This document shows positions 33,423 through 60,853 of a stretch of 64,000 nt of DNA, piece by piece. Positions within the stretch are counted from its first letter, which is position 1; the number at the start of each line of letters is the position of its first letter. This DNA is from an uncultured virus (IMG/VR IMGVR_UViG_3300035130_000204) (taxonomy: Duplodnaviria > Heunggongvirae > Uroviricota > Caudoviricetes). The position numbers and the translations under genes were made by a program. The notes beneath the pieces are model-generated. The model had not been told where the DNA came from. It was given only the letters and a program-made list of their open reading frames with translations, and ran no database searches. The DNA is taken from the IMG/VR virus record IMGVR_UViG_3300035130_000204; one strand, 5' to 3'.

Positions 33423-34098
33423 CGAAATCCACCAACCCCCTCCCGCGCATGAACACGTAGAGCAGTAGCTGGACCTTGGTCAGCTCGCCCGATCGTATCT
33501 TCGACTCGAGCTTGGCCAACCGCTTGAGCACGTCGTTGCGAAACGGCCACATGAAGTAGTAGTCCGCGCTGGTGTACATGCTCACGCGACCATCGCGCCA
33601 CTTGCTAGAGACGTTTCCTCGATACCAAATCCAAAAAGCCATGCCTGCGCCATTCGCACGAGTCTCGATGATCATTCGACCTACCGAGGGCAAAGGCGTT
33701 AGCAGCAGCAAAAAGAGCACTGCGATGAACCAGTAGGGACTCAGCACGATGGACACAAGCGACAGCAGAGCTAACAGCGCCGACACCTGAGGGTTGATGT
33801 AAGCCAGCTCGTAGAGCAAAGGCAGCCGCTTAGCGTCCATCGAATGCTGAGCTTCGTGTACCAGCGTCGCTGCGTCACCAGGTGGGTCGTCGCCAAACTT
33901 CTTGTCCACGTCCGGCCAGTAGACCGTCTTGCCGATCGTCGTGACGTAATCGGTCATGAAGCGCTTGTTGAAGAACAGAAGATACGAAAGCAGCTTCATG
34001 AAGCGGCTAGTATTTTTTTCGACGACGCGTATCCCTACCTCACGCTCGAGCATCTCACGAAGCTGGAGGAGGTCGGTTTTGGTGAACGGGCGATTCAT
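33415..34098 (-). CDS. Membrane protein with HExxH metallopeptidase motif
   Basis: VTTIGKTVY...LVHEAQH; two TM helices. Confidence 0.65.
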   Translation of the reverse strand: MNRPFTKTDLLQLREMLEREVGIRVVEKNTSRFMKLLSYLLFFNKRFMTDYVTTIGKTVYWPDVDKKFGDDPPGDAATLVHEAQHSMDAKRLPLLYELAYINPQVSALLALLSLVSIVLSPYWFIAVLFLLLLTPLPSVGRMIIETRANGAGMAFWIWYRGNVSSKWRDGRVSMYTSADYYFMWPFRNDVLKRLAKLESKIRSGELTKVQLLLYVFMRGRGLVDFDD

Positions 34099-34650
34099 TT
34101 ACCGGCGCTGAAACGGGAAGGGCTGGCGGCGCGGGGGCTCGAACTGCATCAGGTCCAGGTTGACCATCCAACCGTCGGGAACCTTGTTGCGCTTGGCGAT
34201 GCTCTTGACCGTTGCGTTCAGCTCGGTCTGCGCCGTCTTGCGCTTATCGATCAGGTCGTCCTCGGTCTGACGATACTGGATTCGTGCAGAAGCCAGCTGC
34301 GCCTCGAAGTCGCGCATGGACTGAAGCGCTTCACGAATCTGCTCGGCATCGTCGTCGTCGAGCGGCACCGGCTGCGGTACGTCCGGCGCCTTCGGCGCCT
34401 CGGCGGCTTCCTTCTTTTCGGTTTTCTCCGAGACCAACTCCCTCGGTCCTTCTTCGGTTTTGGCAGCGCCGTTGCCTCCACCGTCTGCCCCGTTGTCCTT
34501 TGACTCATCCTCCTTGTCGGTCGAGCCAACGACTTTCGGCTCTCCGCCCCGCTCGACCACCCCGACCTTGCCGTCGACAGATCGCTTCATGACCTCATCG
34601 ATGCCGCCAACGGGCGCCTTGGCCTCAGGACGATTTTTTTGCTTTGCCAT
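34099..34650 (-). CDS. Hypothetical protein (disordered N-terminus, coiled-coil C-terminus)
   Basis: AGGAG before ATG 34650. Confidence 0.65.
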   Translation of the reverse strand: MAKQKNRPEAKAPVGGIDEVMKRSVDGKVGVVERGGEPKVVGSTDKEDESKDNGADGGGNGAAKTEEGPRELVSEKTEKKEAAEAPKAPDVPQPVPLDDDDAEQIREALQSMRDFEAQLASARIQYRQTEDDLIDKRKTAQTELNATVKSIAKRNKVPDGWMVNLDLMQFEPPRRQPFPFQRR

Positions 34651-34694
34651 GTCTTCGTGCTCCTGGTGCTCAATGATGGATACGGATTGCCCCA

Positions 34695-34779
34695 AGTATG
34701 TTCGAAGAAGTTCTTGCCCGTCAAGAAAGCATCCTGAGTACTTGAACTTGTAAAATTTAAGCGCTAGCATCCTCAGGAC
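34695..34779 (-). promoter_or_regulatory. Putative promoter with two upstream TCCT/AGGA-type boxes
   Basis: TTGACG-N18-CATACT; ATCCTGAGTAC 34731-34741 and ATCCTCAGGAC 34769-34779. Confidence 0.5.
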
Positions 34780-34820
34780 AACGGCTCTCAGAGTAGAGCC
34801 ACCCCGGGGCGGGGAACGTC

Positions 34821-34860
34821 AACCGCGGCAGCACCGAGGAGGGGCTGCCGCGGTTTTTTT
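34821..34860 (+). terminator. Rho-independent terminator
   Basis: AACCGCGGCAGC-N11-GCTGCCGCGGTT ending in a 7-T run. Confidence 0.75.
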
Positions 34861-35122
34861 GTGTCTTCGCGCGCGGAGCCTATGCTCGAGGACGTAGCAG
34901 ATTACGAATTTTGGGGGCATGTGACCACAAGGAGAGATGTCTGGGCACAGCTCCTGCTGATCACTATTGTTCTTAGCTCTGCCCCCTTAAGGTTAATCCT
35001 TACTCAAGGTTAAGGCCCAAAGACATAAGATCCCTGCTATAGCTTAAAGCATAGGATCGAATACGTTGTGGCCTGGGGCCTGGCGCCCCCACTTCTAGCG
35101 TCAGCAGTGATCTCTGCCGATG

Positions 35123-35845
35123 CTATCGTGGAGCTGCAGAGTAGCGGACACCGTGAGAGCCCAGGTACTGCACAGGGTCGACGCCGAACCTGCCCTCGTA
35201 AGGCGTGGAGATGGTGAAGCGCACGTTCGCGGGCATCTTGCGCGGCCCGGTGCCATGGATGCTCATGTGCAGATGTGGTCCCATCTGCGCGAAGTGCCGA
35301 CAGCGTGGGTCTCGACCAGTGCCTTGCTGCGCAGGGTCTGCTGGCTTGCGCCCCGTGCCGCTGGTTCTGCCCATGCGACCGATGATCGAGCCGCCCTGAA
35401 CGAGCGCTCCGCGCTCGACCAGACGGTCGTTCAGGTGAGCGTAGAGCGAAGACGATCCATCGCTATGACGAAGAAGGATCGCTTCTCCGTAGCCACGCTT
35501 CTGTCCTGAGTGCTCCACCACCCCCGAGCGCATGGCGCGTACGCTCACTCCCTGCTCTGCGCCGATGTCGATGCCAGGATGCAGCAGATCGCGGCCGTCG
35601 CTGGTCACGCGCATGCCCCATCCTCGGACGAAATTTCCGCGGTCACAGATGTGGCTCGCCCAGACGTCCGGAATGCGCATCGAAGCTAGATTTTCCCGAA
35701 CAAATTCGCCACTCTCTAGGTCTTGACTGCGGCCCTCCATCATCGCTGCGATGAGCGCTGTAGCACCTGTACCAGCAGCACCGATGACGCCTGCAACTTG
35801 CCCTGCTCCCACGGTTTTCCTCCGGTTCGCGAAAAATTCTATCAC
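35123..35845 (-). CDS. M23 family peptidase (probable peptidoglycan hydrolase)
   Basis: HPGIDIGA, GYGEAILLRH, SLYAHL, GPHLH; start uncertain. Confidence 0.9.
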   Translation of the reverse strand: MIEFFANRRKTVGAGQVAGVIGAAGTGATALIAAMMEGRSQDLESGEFVRENLASMRIPDVWASHICDRGNFVRGWGMRVTSDGRDLLHPGIDIGAEQGVSVRAMRSGVVEHSGQKRGYGEAILLRHSDGSSSLYAHLNDRLVERGALVQGGSIIGRMGRTSGTGRKPADPAQQGTGRDPRCRHFAQMGPHLHMSIHGTGPRKMPANVRFTISTPYEGRFGVDPVQYLGSHGVRYSAAPR

Positions 35846-35996
35846 AAGGTGTCCTCAGGATGCAGGTTCTAGGCGCGAGCCAGAGAGAGATCTGATCTGC
35901 TGCGTCCCAGGGATTATGGGCGCTTCGGAGAAAAGTGATCGCCCGATGCAGATCGATGCTTGACACGAGGGCGTCACTCGGACGACTGTGGTCAGC

Positions 35997-36193
35997 ACGG
36001 TTGAGTTGATGAGTTTTCTCTCGTTGCAAGTGAGGTAGTCATCGAGTAGCATAGTCAGAGCTACCCCGGTCCCCATCGCTAAGGTGGGACCTCCCTTTTT
36101 GCCTCGCTTGCAAGATGGGAACTCATCAACCGTACCGCCATCTTGGCGGTGGGGACGGGGGTAGCTCTCGCTCTGTGCTCGGGGGAGCGAGGG
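35997..36193 (+). promoter_or_regulatory. Structured 5' leader (crossing long helices) of the replication operon
   Basis: Two ~30-nt complementary pairs with G-U wobble on the plus strand; upstream TTGACA 35960-35965. Confidence 0.6.
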
Positions 36194-36196
36194 GAC

Positions 36197-37621
36197 ATGG
36201 GGGCCACGCGGCGTAGCGAGAAGGTCGAGCAGGTTGAGGTCTCCAGCCTCAAAGCCCACCCGAAAAACCAGTCACTCTACCAGGATGAACCTGACGCCGC
36301 GTTCATAGAGGACGTCCGTCAGGCTGGTATCCGCGTACCCATTATCGCCGACCGCGAAAGCCGCGCGGTCATCTCGGGCCGGCGCCGCGTCAAGGCAGCC
36401 GAGGCCGTCGGCCTCGAGCGAGTGCCCGTCATCTTCCGCGACTACGAGTCGCGCGACGACATCGTCGAGTCGATCATCAAGGCGAACTGGTACCGGCACA
36501 AGACCCAAGCCCAGGTGCTGCGCGAGGTCGAGGCGCTCATGGTCATCGAGCGCCGCAAGGCCAAGGAGCGGCAGATAGACGGCCGCCGTCGCGGCACGGA
36601 GAGGTCGGCGGGCAAGTACGTCAAAGGCCCTGCAAAAAAGGGCGCAGGCATCGATAGACCCAAGGCTTCTGGGCAGCTTACCCCGCGTAAGGCCCCCGAG
36701 GCTGACACTGCCCGAGATCGCATCGGCAAGAAGATCGGCATGACGGGCCGCAACGTCCAGCGTGCGATCAAGGTCATCGAGGCCGCAAAGAAGAAGCACG
36801 GCAAGAAGTGGCAGTCGGATGAGCACGTGCAAGAAGTGCTGGCCGGCAAAAAGTCGATCGTTCAGGCATCGAAGGAAATTCTCAGGACAGAAAGAGAAGA
36901 GGGCATCAAGAAGAAGGCGGCAAAGATCAAGGACCCCGTCGGTGACATCCGGTGCAAGGACAACATCGACGACATCCTCGACGAGACGGTCGACCACGTC
37001 TGCGTCGACCCACCCTACGGTGTCGCCACCAACTTCAATGCACAATTCAATGACCGCGCGGCCATGGACTCGTCCTTCGAGGACTGGGACGAGGGCAAGC
37101 TCTCGCTGGCCGAGATTGGCCAGTGGTGCGCCGAGTGGGTGCGCGTGGTCAAGACGGGCGGCAACGTGATCGTCTTCTGCTCGGACGACTACGTTTCGTT
37201 CATCAAGGAGGCGCTGCGCCGCTGCGGTTGCGAGCGCATCCAGACCATCACCTGGCACAAGTCCAATCCCGAGCCGTCGCTGCGCCAGGTCGAGTTCTCC
37301 AGCTCCTGCGAGTACGTCGTCATCGCTTGCAAGGGCGACAAGCGAAGCGTCTTCAACTGGAAGGGCCAGAAGGAGATGCACAACTTCGTCGAGGGTCCGA
37401 TCTGTTCTGGAAAGGAGAGGGCGGGCCATCCGACGCAGAAGCCGCTGTGGCTGATCAAGTGGCTGCTCGAGCGCCTTACGAACAAGGGGGACCTGGTGCT
37501 CGACAACTTCGCTGGTGTGGGCACGACGGCCGTCGCGTGCAAGCGCTTGGGCCGTCAGTTCATCGCGGTGGAGAAAAACAAGAAGTACGTCAACGCCATC
37601 AAGGTCCGGCTGGCGTCGTGA
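36197..37621 (+). CDS. ParB-domain plus N4/N6 DNA methyltransferase (beta class) fusion
   Basis: VISGRRRVKAA ParB box; DPPY, HPTQKP, VLDNFAGVGTT. Confidence 0.92.
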   Translation: MGATRRSEKVEQVEVSSLKAHPKNQSLYQDEPDAAFIEDVRQAGIRVPIIADRESRAVISGRRRVKAAEAVGLERVPVIFRDYESRDDIVESIIKANWYRHKTQAQVLREVEALMVIERRKAKERQIDGRRRGTERSAGKYVKGPAKKGAGIDRPKASGQLTPRKAPEADTARDRIGKKIGMTGRNVQRAIKVIEAAKKKHGKKWQSDEHVQEVLAGKKSIVQASKEILRTEREEGIKKKAAKIKDPVGDIRCKDNIDDILDETVDHVCVDPPYGVATNFNAQFNDRAAMDSSFEDWDEGKLSLAEIGQWCAEWVRVVKTGGNVIVFCSDDYVSFIKEALRRCGCERIQTITWHKSNPEPSLRQVEFSSSCEYVVIACKGDKRSVFNWKGQKEMHNFVEGPICSGKERAGHPTQKPLWLIKWLLERLTNKGDLVLDNFAGVGTTAVACKRLGRQFIAVEKNKKYVNAIKVRLAS

Positions 37622-38802
37622 CGCCATTCAGCGCAGAGTGGAAGCTCGATACCTTCCGTCGCTTTTTCACTACACGCAGCGACGTCTGGGCTTTTCGAAC
37701 CAAAATCCAGGGCAAGCCTGGGTACGTCCCGATCTGGAAGCCTCTGACTGATCGCGTGCTCGTCGATCACATGCGTGGCGACATCATGATCGGCAGCTAC
37801 ACGCCGTTACGTGATGGGACAACGCCTTGGGTAGCCGCAGACCTTGACGGCAAAGGTGGCGACGTGTGGGCCGACGCGGCAGAGCTGGCGTCGTTGCTGC
37901 GCGACTACAAGTGCAGCCCTCTTTGCAACACCTCGCAGTCGGGCAGGGGTATTCATGTCCGCGTCATATTCGATGAGCCCATAGAGGCGTGGCTAGCCAG
38001 GCGCTTCATGCTCGGCTTCGTCGAGGAGGCTGGGTTGGATCACATGCGCGACGGCGGAAGCTTCGACCGAGTTTTTCCTGCTGCTGACCGACTGCGCAAC
38101 AACGACCGCGCTATCGGAAACCAGATCGCCGCGCCGCTTCACGCGCAGCGGGCCCGCGATACGCGCGGCTGCCTCATCCTCGACAGTCAGTTCTGTCCTG
38201 TGCCGCTTGGTGAGCCAACGTGGGACTACCTCGATCTGTACGAGTCGGTCTGCAAGGACCACGTGCTTGAGGTCTGCGAGGAGATGGAAACGATGGATGG
38301 CGTCGTTGACCATGGCTTCGACGGCGATATTCGTCACGGGGACGACGATGGCTACGATAAGCACAGCGGCAAGCCGCAAAACGGAGGCGGTACGACACGG
38401 CCTCGCACGCAGCATCAGCTCGACGTCGTTATGCGCGAGTGCGAGCTGTTTCATTACGTGCGACAGAACCCGGTGCTGCCCTACGAGCTTTGGTTCGCCA
38501 TCGGTGCGAACCTGAAATTCTTCGAGCAGGGCGGTCGAGCGGCCTTCCATGAAATCAGCGCACTGGACGGATCACGCGATTCGCGTGGGGCGCCTCGATA
38601 TGACCGCGATGCTACGAACGCGAAGTTCGACAACATTCTGGAGACGGTCGAGTCACCCTACAGCTGCGCACGTATCGCTGAGGAAGTGTGGCGCTGCCCT
38701 GAGCTGGCAGAGGACGGCACCTGCAATCGGTTTCGGAATCAACGGACAGGTAAGGCCCCGAGGTCTTTGGCTAGCATCCCGTACTTCGTGAAGGTGGCCT
38801 AA
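37618..38802 (+). CDS. Archaeo-eukaryotic primase (TOTE-type AEP domain) with PriCT-like and Cys-rich C-terminus
   Basis: AADLD, SQSGRGIHV, DRVFP, GNQIAAPL; YELWFAIG; GTG start overlaps the MTase stop. Confidence 0.85.
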   Translation: MTPFSAEWKLDTFRRFFTTRSDVWAFRTKIQGKPGYVPIWKPLTDRVLVDHMRGDIMIGSYTPLRDGTTPWVAADLDGKGGDVWADAAELASLLRDYKCSPLCNTSQSGRGIHVRVIFDEPIEAWLARRFMLGFVEEAGLDHMRDGGSFDRVFPAADRLRNNDRAIGNQIAAPLHAQRARDTRGCLILDSQFCPVPLGEPTWDYLDLYESVCKDHVLEVCEEMETMDGVVDHGFDGDIRHGDDDGYDKHSGKPQNGGGTTRPRTQHQLDVVMRECELFHYVRQNPVLPYELWFAIGANLKFFEQGGRAAFHEISALDGSRDSRGAPRYDRDATNAKFDNILETVESPYSCARIAEEVWRCPELAEDGTCNRFRNQRTGKAPRSLASIPYFVKVA

Positions 38803-38804
38803 AG

Positions 38805-41800
38805 ATGGCATTGGACGAGCCCAAGCCCAGCAACGTTCATGACCACGATCACCATGATGAAGACGAGCACGCATACTACGTGCCGGGCTTGCCCGAGGGG
38901 GAGCCCGTCGTCTACGCCAACCACGCGGAGGCCTACGCAGCGCTAGAGAAATCGCTGATGCCTTACAGGACGAATGACCCGATCGCTGGCACGTGTGTGC
39001 TGGCGAAGGCCACTCCGGGCGTTGGCAAGACGAAGGTCGCCCTGCATATGGCGGCCATGAAGTGCGTCGACAACAAGCGGGGCATGTGGGCCGCTCCGAC
39101 GCGCAACATCGCGTGGCAGGCCCACGACAGGCTGAAGAGCGACGAGTACGGAACCAAGGTTCTCATGCTCGAGGGGCGGCACAACGGCTATGTAGCGGTG
39201 CGCACAGACAAGTACGGCGTCGAGACCGAGCAAGAGGTTCTGCCCAACTGCGTGCGCTACGATCGTATCGCCCTAGCGCGTAAGCGTGGCTATCCAGCTC
39301 GGACCTACGTGTGCAACGGCTGCCCGCACTGTCCCACGTTTCGCAACAGCAAGGGTGAGAAGCCGCTGAGCGATCAGTGGTGCCGCTACTTCAAGGTGCT
39401 CTACGAGGCCAACAATCTACCGAACGGCGAGAAGCAGTCGACTTTCTCGGGCTACATCAGCTCCGAGGAAGCCCAGAGCATCAAGAACAGCAAGATGGAA
39501 AAGATCATCGTCACCACGCATCACATGGCGGCGGCGATGATCGCTGACGGCGAGATGCTCAGCCCTGATTGGGTCATCTTCGACGAGGACCCCATCAGCG
39601 CTCTGCGCGAGACGTATGTTTGGAACGAAGACGAGCTGGACCGCGACATCGACGGCGACAACTTCATCGTCTTCAGGGCGCTCCTGAAACGCACCATCTA
39701 CCTTGCCAAGAAGCACCTGGCTGAGCCTCTCGATACGCCGGACGACAAGAAGGTCCGTGTTCAGCTTCGATACAGCGTGCACCAAGCGACCGAGTACGGT
39801 CACACGACGCTGTGGGGCAAGGACATGGCGAGGTTCATGGTCATCGCGGCTCGGCAGCTCAATGTCGACCTGAAGACCGTCCTCGAGACGACGGCGAACA
39901 CCATGCCTCCCGTCAACCCTGGACAGCTTTCCTACATGCCGAACGACGAGGTCGAAAGGCTTCCGCACTACAAAGAGGTCGACCTGGCTGGAGAGCTGCT
40001 GCGAGTCCTTGAGGCAGCAGAGGATCAGAAGGAGACGGCCTACAAGGTCAGCTTGCGCAACGAACCCGGCAAGGGGTGGGCCTTCGTCTGGGACCACGTC
40101 AGACGCATTAGCTACGAAGGCCCCCTGTTCTTCCTCGACGCCTACGGTTCGCCAGAGATCGTCAAGCGCTACACGAACCGCGAGGTGACGCTCATCGACG
40201 TCAAGTGCCAGGTGCGAGACAACGTCACGGTGCGGCTATACCCAGAGGTGTCGACGAATCGGTCCGATATGGACGAGGCAGGGGAGCGCGAGTGCATCTT
40301 CGACGACTGGCTGCTTCCAGAGCTGCGCAAGCACAACGGAAAGCGAGTGCTCATCTACACGCAGAAGCGTTACGTGAGCTGGCTCGAGCAGAAGATCGCT
40401 GACGAGGAGGACACCCTAGACTTCGCCTCGATCAACTTCAAATGGTTCTGGCAGGACCGCGGCGACGACTCCTTCGGCGACTTCGACACCGTTATCGTTT
40501 TCGGGACACCGATCCCCAACGTCATCGCCGAGCGGCAGTTCGCCAACGCGCTGTACGCTGGTGAGGAGCCCCTCAGCTGGAAGACAAACGGAAAGAACGA
40601 GTACCTGGACGTCCGTGCTGCAGAGCACACCAAGGCTAGACAGCAAAACGAGCTTCTCCAATGCGTCTACCGGGTTCGCCCGGCGCTACCAAACTCGAAA
40701 CCACAGGCGATTGTGATATTTTCCAGGATGAAGCTGCCCGTGGAGTTTGAGTTGAAGGGCGCTAAGCAAGAGAAGATGCACGATAGGCACGACGAGAAAT
40801 CGCGGTATGCCATCGGCATCTGGCATATGTACCGCGATCTTGGCTGTTACGCCGACGCCTTCGCGCCGTTCATCGGGGTAGATAAGCACTTCGTCGAGTG
40901 GGCGCGCGGAGAGCGCGACGACTTCCCGATGGACTACGAGACCATGTGCCGTCGGCACAATCGTGTCCTCAGGACTAGGTCCTACCGTAACGGTCGAACC
41001 TTCGCCATGAAGTACTTCTGCAACCCCAGGCCCAACGAACCGGTGCCGGTTCGTCAGACGCTCTACCGAGGAAAGGTCCTCAACTTCTTCGGAAACGAGG
41101 AGACGGTCCACAAGATTCTCGATCGGATGTTCGAGGCCACGCGCGAGCCTGGTGTGGACAACGAGTCGGTAGAGGATCAAGGGCGCGCAGGCCCTGAGCC
41201 TGGAAGCTGGCAGCAGTACCTGCCGCTCGCGGCCTGGCGCAAGGGGTTGGTCATCGAGAACGTCATCCGTTCGCTCCAAGGGGAGCTGTTCTTCAGCGGC
41301 AAGTGGCGTCCCGATGAGTGGCTTCCGACGGAGGTGCAGTATCTGATCGACGACCTACACATGGAGCATCCGTGCCTGATCGGGGTGCACCGGATGCTGT
41401 CCATGAAGTGCTACTTCGAGGAGAAGGGCTTTACCAATGTCCCGGACCCTCTCGAAGACCAAGTGAAGTTCTGGGCCTTCATCCGTGGTCACATGGACAT
41501 CTACTACGAGATCATGGAGAAGACCAAGGGTATGACCGAGGCCAAGACCATCGATGAGTTCGTCGTCGAAGAGGACCCCGATCCTGGAGATGGCGGCGAC
41601 AAAAAGGCCCCGGTACCCAAAAACGTCTATGATATTGGCATCGGAACAGCGGAAGTGAGTGTAGGTGGTCAAGACGAGGTCAAGTCGACCTCGTCCGAGG
41701 GTGGTCAGGTTGGGTTGGTGATTCCGCTCATCGTTTCCTCGCCAAGCTCGGGCTCGGATGGCGTCTCAGAAGGAGGGGGCTCTGTCGGCGACGAAGAGGA

Positions 41801-41888
41801 CCCCTCTGCTGAGCCCTCAGGGGGCTCCTCAGGCCCCGACGGTGGTCCTGCCTCCGGACCAGGCCCCCCTGACGAAGACACGTCCTGA
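38805..41888 (+). CDS. Large SF2-like helicase/origin-binding protein with Cys cluster
   Basis: TPGVGKT Walker A, MWAAPTRN, IFDED Walker B, LLQCVYRVRP motif VI-like; C..CNGCPHC..C. Confidence 0.75.
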   Translation: MALDEPKPSNVHDHDHHDEDEHAYYVPGLPEGEPVVYANHAEAYAALEKSLMPYRTNDPIAGTCVLAKATPGVGKTKVALHMAAMKCVDNKRGMWAAPTRNIAWQAHDRLKSDEYGTKVLMLEGRHNGYVAVRTDKYGVETEQEVLPNCVRYDRIALARKRGYPARTYVCNGCPHCPTFRNSKGEKPLSDQWCRYFKVLYEANNLPNGEKQSTFSGYISSEEAQSIKNSKMEKIIVTTHHMAAAMIADGEMLSPDWVIFDEDPISALRETYVWNEDELDRDIDGDNFIVFRALLKRTIYLAKKHLAEPLDTPDDKKVRVQLRYSVHQATEYGHTTLWGKDMARFMVIAARQLNVDLKTVLETTANTMPPVNPGQLSYMPNDEVERLPHYKEVDLAGELLRVLEAAEDQKETAYKVSLRNEPGKGWAFVWDHVRRISYEGPLFFLDAYGSPEIVKRYTNREVTLIDVKCQVRDNVTVRLYPEVSTNRSDMDEAGERECIFDDWLLPELRKHNGKRVLIYTQKRYVSWLEQKIADEEDTLDFASINFKWFWQDRGDDSFGDFDTVIVFGTPIPNVIAERQFANALYAGEEPLSWKTNGKNEYLDVRAAEHTKARQQNELLQCVYRVRPALPNSKPQAIVIFSRMKLPVEFELKGAKQEKMHDRHDEKSRYAIGIWHMYRDLGCYADAFAPFIGVDKHFVEWARGERDDFPMDYETMCRRHNRVLRTRSYRNGRTFAMKYFCNPRPNEPVPVRQTLYRGKVLNFFGNEETVHKILDRMFEATREPGVDNESVEDQGRAGPEPGSWQQYLPLAAWRKGLVIENVIRSLQGELFFSGKWRPDEWLPTEVQYLIDDLHMEHPCLIGVHRMLSMKCYFEEKGFTNVPDPLEDQVKFWAFIRGHMDIYYEIMEKTKGMTEAKTIDEFVVEEDPDPGDGGDKKAPVPKNVYDIGIGTAEVSVGGQDEVKSTSSEGGQVGLVIPLIVSSPSSGSDGVSEGGGSVGDEEDPSAEPSGGSSGPDGGPASGPGPPDEDTS

Positions 41889-55186: not shown

Positions 55187-55401
55187 TTTCTGTCCCTCCT
55201 CAGGCGTTGTGGTGACGCCCACGAGTCGACGCCCCCGGGCATGGAGGAACCCGGAGGGACAGTCTAGGCACGCCGCCGCCGGGGGCGCCGACTCGTGAAC
55301 ATCAGCGGAAATTGTTTGCCTCGTCCCCCCGGCGACGGCTTGCACGCTGGAGCCGCCGCCGGGGGGTGTGCCAAGGTGGAGGAGCGCGAGCACCGGATTA
55401 T

Positions 55402-55434
55402 CCCGACGTAGCATGTGCTAGGTCGGGGTGTCAA
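55402..55434 (-). promoter_or_regulatory. Promoter with TAGCAYRTGYTA operator-like palindrome
   Basis: TTGACA-N8-TAGCACATGCTA-CGTCGGG. Confidence 0.65.
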
Positions 55435-55676
55435 CGATTTTTTCGCTCTTGCCAGTGCTCGCGCACCTTGCGCTTGGCGCCGTCGAGACTGCGGGACTCC
55501 AAGATGTACCGTTCTTGGTCGTGAGGTTCGACCAGGCACACCTCGAAGTCCCAGCGTATGAGGTTGCCGTCTGCGTAAACGGCAATGTTTTGGCTGACGA
55601 GGTAATCCTCCCACCGCCAGATCGACATGGGCTTGCCCTCGTTGTCGCGGACGGTGGTGCGTTTCCAGTTGGCCAT
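55431..55676 (-). CDS. Hypothetical protein
   Basis: 81-aa ORF in operon. Confidence 0.55.
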   Translation of the reverse strand: MANWKRTTVRDNEGKPMSIWRWEDYLVSQNIAVYADGNLIRWDFEVCLVEPHDQERYILESRSLDGAKRKVREHWQERKNR

Positions 55677-59697: not shown

Positions 59698-59812
59698 GGT
59701 GTCCCTCCTTCCGGCGTCATTGCCGGCTTCCAAGCGACCGACGTCCCGCAGGACGTCGGCCCCTTGCGAGCCGGCAGGCTCGCGTTGTCTTGTGTGTCGC
59801 CGTCCTGAGGAT

Positions 59813-60739: not shown

Positions 60740-60853
60740 GGGTTGTCCCTCCTGGTTGCTGACCTAGCACGGGCCGCCGTCCGCGGGGACGACGGCCCGT
60801 GGCGGGCCAGCAGCCCGCGTTGCGTTTGGTTAGAATCCTGAGGATGTTGCCCG

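Follow-up and report, generated by a model that had tools for sequence, protein, structure and literature searches.

The window (the whole stretch of 64,000 nt that was analysed, which is the start of the 150.8-kb virus record G000) contains two long crossing helices that make up a structured leader that is real, conserved and not yet catalogued, situated at the replication locus in a group of large uncultured viruses. We read this element as the transcribed 5' leader of a methyltransferase-primase-helicase operon and as a folding switch gated by topology that may control those genes, a reading that we favor tentatively and would place a little short of an even chance.

Both helices lie on the plus strand. 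Helix A pairs its 5' arm A1 (35997..36038) with A2 (36099..36133) over 34 bp, and helix B, whose 5' arm B1 (36049..36087) sits within the loop of helix A, pairs with B2 (36138..36178) over 37 bp. The crossing order A1-B1-A2-B2 is therefore as originally predicted, and every pairing named in that prediction was found at its claimed position, both helices being slightly longer than first described. In helix A, 36005-36018 pairs with 36117-36130 (14 bp, with a perfect 11-mer inside) and 36024-36038 with 36099-36113 (15 bp, with two G-U pairs within the 14 bp claimed before). Helix B consists of 36057-36067/36158-36168 (11 bp) and 36069-36087/36138-36156 (19 bp, including three G-U), separated by one G.A mismatch. 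The local hairpins proposed for each B arm also fold in prediction, that of B1 at 36068-36091, with a GCUAA pentaloop, and that of B2 at 36134-36150, overlapping a CTTGGCG motif (36142-36148) that is invariant in all three loci described below.

The 251-nt region folds with a z-score of -4.5, and none of 200 shuffles was equally stable; its minus strand gives -4.6, though with a weaker energy. Measured against shuffled 3' arms, helix A of the window has a z-score of -6.3 and helix B of -9.0 (0/500 shuffles each). By raw duplex energy the element came only 13th in the genome, outranked by GC-rich windows, and we dropped this measure of significance. A composition-normalised ranking against shuffled arms, applied to the 819 of 18,824 G000 scan windows that passed the energy cut, places the element first. 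The second-best crossing-helix stretch after normalisation, at G000 123157-123357 (plus strand), has z-scores of -5.1 and -4.5. An attC-like reading of the element was rejected, as the GTT/AAC order of the attC consensus is reversed in it.

The element fills the intergenic space between a divergent M23 peptidase gene (35123..35845, minus strand; PF01551), which is syntenic in the relative L161, and the operon, which is on the plus strand. The first gene of the operon (36197..37621) codes for a fusion of a ParB-N domain and an N6/N4 DNA methyltransferase (MTase; PF02195, PF01555); its ATG (36197) and the G-rich ribosome-binding region occupy 36181..36199, and this start agrees with the MTase alignment. 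The stop of the MTase gene is overlapped by the gene of an archaeo-eukaryotic primase (AEP-TOTE; 37618..38802; PF22548, E 1e-31), followed by that of a large protein (38805..41888) that we call helicase-like from a weak DEAD match only (PF00270, E 5e-6); it had no PHROG match, and the relative G001 encodes an orthologue (E 1e-167). In the same MTase alignment, one branch of ParB-MTase proteins (P0013-P0024) has the DPPY motif replaced by DPDY, QPDF, EPDV or similar, which suggests that in this branch methyltransferase activity may be changed or lost with the fusion retained.

All conservation counts rest on three independent loci. Besides the window, these are L161, in the 182.8-kb viral record G001, with the same gene order and a primase 44% identical, and L081, a metagenome contig with an MTase 43% identical and an adjoining primase. 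The three share the layout promoter-A1-B1-A2-B2-start ahead of orthologous ParB-MTase and primase genes, with 34-35 bp in helix A, 24-37 bp in helix B and linkers of 10-18, 11-19 and 2-4 nt. All six helices have z-scores between -6.2 and -9.0, with no shuffle out of 500 reaching any of them, and only 83 of the 272 alignment columns are invariant. Sequence conservation is concentrated in the B core (CGCyAwGGTGG with CTTGGCG), the base of helix A and the promoter. Both sides change in 21 of the 71 window pairs, against 10.8 in shuffles (0/500 reach the real value) and 2-7 in slid-partner controls; since there are three sequences and the alignment is imperfect, this count is indicative, and the z-scores of each locus weigh more. 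With both helices kept in two diverged loci, the original prediction is borne out where it looked to relatives and covariation.

MTase alignment searches covered 7 of 64 viral parts and 4 of 64 metagenome parts, and among the 160 loci listed from them one, L081, is a full-length relative; further metagenome relatives beyond those listed probably exist. The primase alignment search returned one close viral locus out of three, and only distant matches in seven genome contigs. A relaxed DNA pattern retrieved 10 loci, of which one is real (the record of L161) and nine have no comparable helix pairs. No match came from single-protein locus searches of viral contigs or from the exact B-arm pattern, and no additional relatives from an N-terminal MTase alignment. 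The phage and plasmid collections held no DNA similar to the element and no full-length primase relative. The element is single-copy in its genome, and searching 197 loci and G000 with a profile built from the three elements gave no additional copy. The original prediction recognised no family for it, and the element matches none in Rfam, which gave no match at gathering score in the window, only two upstream (E 8-10) and none at E<=1 in L161 and L081. We found no description of it in the main texts of the open-access literature.

Helices A and B have 0, 0 and 2 bases in common in the three loci. Since there is next to no competition for bases, the element is not a classical switch of the attenuator kind, and any exclusivity between the helices must be topological or kinetic. 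The original proposal of a two-state leader thus needs amending. In computed stepwise folding, no structure beats helix A in any of the three loci before most of B2 has been made, and the ensemble energies of A-only and B-only folds (-101.3/-104.7, -87.6/-86.0 and -93.4/-90.3) differ by just 3.4, 1.6 and 3.1 kcal/mol. A fold switch is predicted because both helices formed at once would tie a true knot. In a schematic 3D polyline with direct linkers and real lengths, the full A+B structure is knotted in every variant, and unknotted variants become possible with the B core shortened to 8-12 bp. Linkers L2+L3 reach 110-150 Å against 95-98 Å for helix A, and L1+L2 span B; coexistence is thus geometrically possible, but it needs threading.

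The sequence of events that we propose would begin with helix A closing first, which would trap B1 with its pentaloop kept open. As B2 emerges from the polymerase, its UUGGCG core could pair with the B1 loop over about one turn; full zipping of B would then require either that A unwinds from the free 5' end or that the chain knots. Free B2 would cover the ribosome site, and B2 within helix B would leave it more open. The slow change from A to B might act as a timer or as the target of a factor, and the switch would in this way delay or limit expression of the MTase, primase and helicase-like genes.

A pair of interleaved helices, each 10 bp or longer, has been given as the recipe, or criterion, for RNA knot candidates (Burton 2016; PMC4829277), and the element exceeds these lengths by a wide margin in all three loci (34-35 and 24-37 bp). 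Natural RNA knotting is an open question, with one case reported (PMC13725558). The candidate list within PMC4829277 has no RNA whose shorter helix is longer than 13 bp, whereas here the shorter helix has 24-37 bp, covaries and belongs to an element whose ~180 nt are accessible to in vitro synthesis. Something would be learned either way, whether the result is a knot or a switch that only topology gates. As treated in sections of the same two papers, designed X-Y-X'-Y' nucleic acid knots and the RydC trefoil have the same pairing order and helices longer than one turn; unlike them, the element is natural and conserved with about three turns per helix, and its knotting is that of a schematic model.

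The conserved core of helix B deserves separate consideration. UUGGCG is kept in B2 in all three loci and is predicted to be paired, in the hairpin stem, in the window and L161, being only transiently open in L081. The pentaloop of B1 is GCUAA in the window and L161 and GCCAU in L081 (GCyAw), and its predicted probability of being unpaired is ~1.0 in the window, 0.6-1.0 in L081 and 0.3-0.7 in L161. A UUGGCG hexamer reportedly figures in the title of a 1998 paper by Asano. The order of the partners in ColIb-P9 is the opposite of the element's, which has its CGC-bearing partner upstream and UUGGCG downstream, outside the predicted loop, unlike plasmid rep leaders. According to a passage of PMC3753616, TTGGCG is the shared loop of the pMU720, R1 and ColIb-P9 fusions; the likeness to a plasmid antisense-target hexamer is a resemblance that we noticed post hoc.

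The leaders of the I-complex (ColIb-P9 repZ, IncB pMU720) and IncL/M rep genes also place crossing helices ahead of a replication gene (parts of PMC10286972, PMC10724649 and PMC8125031), and in one of these accounts the pseudoknot is proposed to open the ribosome site (PMC8125031, in part). Their helices are much shorter, 18/10 and 19/8 (PMC4829277, Table 2) against 34-35 and 24-37 bp, and the genes that follow the element code for an MTase, an AEP primase and a helicase-like protein, with no RepA or RepZ. The plasmid copy-number likeness of the original prediction holds for the crossing helices, UUGGCG and the position before replication genes; a leader peptide and a looped hexamer were not seen. 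As to an antisense RNA, the scan covered sigma-70-type promoters and gave none on the minus strand over the ~380 nt that follow B2 in either the window or L161; L081 has one distant weak site. By eye, the three loci contain no conserved leader peptide, as the short ORFs of A1 differ in frame and length, have no upstream SD and end far before the gene. By analogy of outline, the element would resemble the I-complex and IncL/M pseudoknot leaders, yet it does not appear to be a member of them. If the proposed control exists, plasmid-style RNA control of replication would reach a group of 150-180 kb viruses and the element would mark their likely origin region.

A promoter-like site on the plus strand, TTGACA-N18-GACTGT (35960..35989), with a predicted start at ~35996, was present as originally claimed. 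The pattern TTGAC(A/G)-N18-(G/C)AnnnT stands at the equal position in L161 (2711-2740) and L081 (231-260), and in all three loci the predicted transcript enters helix A at +1 to +3. Sites of this pattern class number 15 in G000 and 18 in G001. A generic sigma-70 scan missed the site (0 sites). Across the three loci the helices contain 187 Watson-Crick oppositions, 20 G.T, 3 A.C and 9 others, a G.T count that is biased toward the folding strand because the registers came from plus-strand folds; the plus strand is stabler in five of the six helices and equal in one. The G-U pairs and the conserved promoter-like site that ends just before A1 indicate a plus-strand RNA, which is the form in which the element likely works, judging from the sequence. 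That it is a leader placed ahead of the replication operon has good support from the relatives, the covariation and the promoter position, with transcription probable. Among the matches listed, no RNA dataset carried the stretch. A DNA contig of run X19 spans it with 115 differing letters and 22 gaps over ~800 nt, the listed substitutions being upstream of the element.

With regard to output, opening the ribosome site (-16 to +3) in the A-only state costs 9.2, 7.5 and 15.3 kcal/mol for the three loci; once B has formed, the cost is 4.6, 5.4 and 10.7. Opening is thus 2.1-4.6 kcal/mol cheaper in B-only in every one of them, the right direction for a pseudoknot that frees the Shine-Dalgarno. The pairing of CTCGCTC with the ribosome-binding region that had been claimed is present in the window, 36165-36174 with 36184-36193. 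However, the real blocking value was reached by 161, 208 and 42 of 300 B2 shuffles, and since shuffled B2 blocks the site as well, no evolved anti-SD is demonstrated. Mean unpaired probabilities of the start region change in inconsistent directions across the loci. Translational gating is, then, a prediction of the folding models. Delayed folding from a first metastable structure is also described for the maturation gene's 5' UTR in the levivirus MS2 (part of PMC4615214), where the folds contend for bases they have in common and the late one is the off state; the element's folds share no bases, and its late fold is predicted to be more open.

More ties the element to replication than the original prediction could know, because the GC-skew switch sits here in two genomes. 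Cumulative GC skew turns once in each of the long genomes. In G000 it does so at 35,750 (95% 34.0-37.75 kb; change-point interval 34000..38640 for the predicted bidirectional origin), the element being at 36.0-36.2 kb; in G001 the turn is at 102,750 (101-104 kb) and the element at 102.45-102.64 kb. Skew of this kind has been taken as bidirectional replication in large phages (a portion of PMC7162821). With gene strand as a covariate, the G000 estimate is unchanged and that of G001 moves to 103,750 (102.2-106.0 kb), on an AT-rich gap beyond the M23 gene that holds the AT-richest 150-mer found in G001. The element lies within the skew interval in both genomes, at a resolution of ~2 kb either side, and is origin-proximal; the estimates also take in the AT-rich gap, ~1 kb away, and to call the element the origin itself goes beyond what the skew shows. 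The gap (window 34771-35122, L161 1224-1800) contains short palindromes rich in TTAA/TAAG and, at ~34821-34863, a terminator-like hairpin, with no iterons or sequence conservation, and is a candidate rival site of origin unwinding.

This position raises the alternative of an origin RNA whose folding would free or position its 3' part for an R-loop, a pre-primer or transcription-coupled opening, which we regard as unlikely, though with an appreciable chance. In G000 and G001 the single sign change of the skew has an interval that includes the element, a pattern that holds against gene strand, and ColE1 RNA II and lambda transcriptional activation offer precedents; ColE1 RNA II/RNA I is likewise a structured transcript close to an origin, with a fold that could determine whether initiation occurs (sections of PMC5043065). 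The element differs from it in being ~200 nt long, continuing into a protein gene and having its own primase adjacent, with no counter-transcript found. G-richness just after B (31 G and 11 C per 60 nt in the window) would speak for it but is only slight in L161 and lacking in L081, and the covariate shift of G001 onto the AT-rich gap, the virus-encoded primase and the lack of an RNA I-like promoter all count against this role. The single-stranded DNA origin offered as the alternative in the original prediction, in which the helices would form in the opened origin strand and be recognised by primase or helicase, is the weaker reading and seems very improbable to us. It would explain the origin-proximal position and the conserved sequence of the B core, and the helices persist under DNA parameters (-25 to -37 kcal/mol). 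Nevertheless, the beginning of helix A falls at the predicted transcription start in all three loci, ~180 nt of unwound DNA would be needed, a closed bubble tethers both ends, and one strand is favored, yet the skew is bidirectional.

A stable true-knot pseudoknot, with A and B together, threaded via the free 5' end after B has formed and serving as a nuclease-resistant cap, scaffold or binding platform, appears improbable. It draws on the lack of base competition, the sufficient linker reach and the helix lengths, which lie far above the knot-candidate recipe in the cited part of PMC4829277; there is no tail to pull through because A1 starts at the predicted 5' end, and in five of six settings A+B leaves the ribosome site at least as open as B alone does. 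Against this, about three turns would have to be threaded, the account in PMC13725558 reports a single natural RNA knot, the knot model is a schematic polyline, and alternative states are a better fit both to the local hairpins of B1 and B2 and to A-only and B-only energies that are nearly equal. Only a slim chance goes to an attenuator or an RNase III-type processing or stability leader, in which B with a U-tract would stop transcription, or cleavage of A would release B. RNase III typically acts on long helices with bulges, and a U5 tract follows helix B in L161 and L081; it is absent in the window, where the scan found no intrinsic terminator before the first gene. B moreover closes a loop of 50-60 nt, and attenuator folds usually overlap in sequence, which A and B do not. 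The zipper-type attenuator cATT of pLS20 is close in having a long-stem leader with two folds of near-equal energy ahead of a mobile-element operon, but it is nested and ends in an intrinsic terminator (excerpted from PMC13401043), while the element is crossed. A bolder version, that of a topology-controlled viral origin RNA, either a deep knot with two three-turn helices or a pair of states exclusive solely via knotting, in which the upstream inverted repeat would replace the UUGGCG-targeting antisense RNA, is in our view also unlikely, with a modest chance of being right.

Several other repeats and hairpins were seen in these genomes. An intergenic hairpin at G000 86026-86155, with a 24-bp near-perfect stem and a structured loop, lies just before a start codon and has GTTGATGAG/CTCATCAAC in common with helix A but no crossing partner; the sharing of GTTGATGAG is probably due to chance, because it is not kept in L161 and is unpaired in G001. 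The palindrome TCCTNAGGA occurs in 53 copies in G000 (~2.3 expected under a third-order model) and 40 in G001, for example at window positions 34770, 35852, 40966 and 42141; one copy lies upstream of the promoter of the element and two do so in L161. In G000, 35 of the 53 copies fall within crudely called ORFs, against 86% coding, and TCCTNAGGA is a candidate for an operator, late-promoter or methyltransferase/ParB site used virus-wide. Long hairpins that GTCC-N4-GGAC closes occur three times in the GC-rich 58-65 kb region (window 59720-59777 and 60754-60815; G000 64380-64439), each followed ~30-60 nt on by a TCCTSAGGA site, and may be a repeated cassette or recombination site. Last, a cluster of GC-rich inverted repeats, several of them overlapping, occupies window positions 55213-55480 in a minus-strand region.
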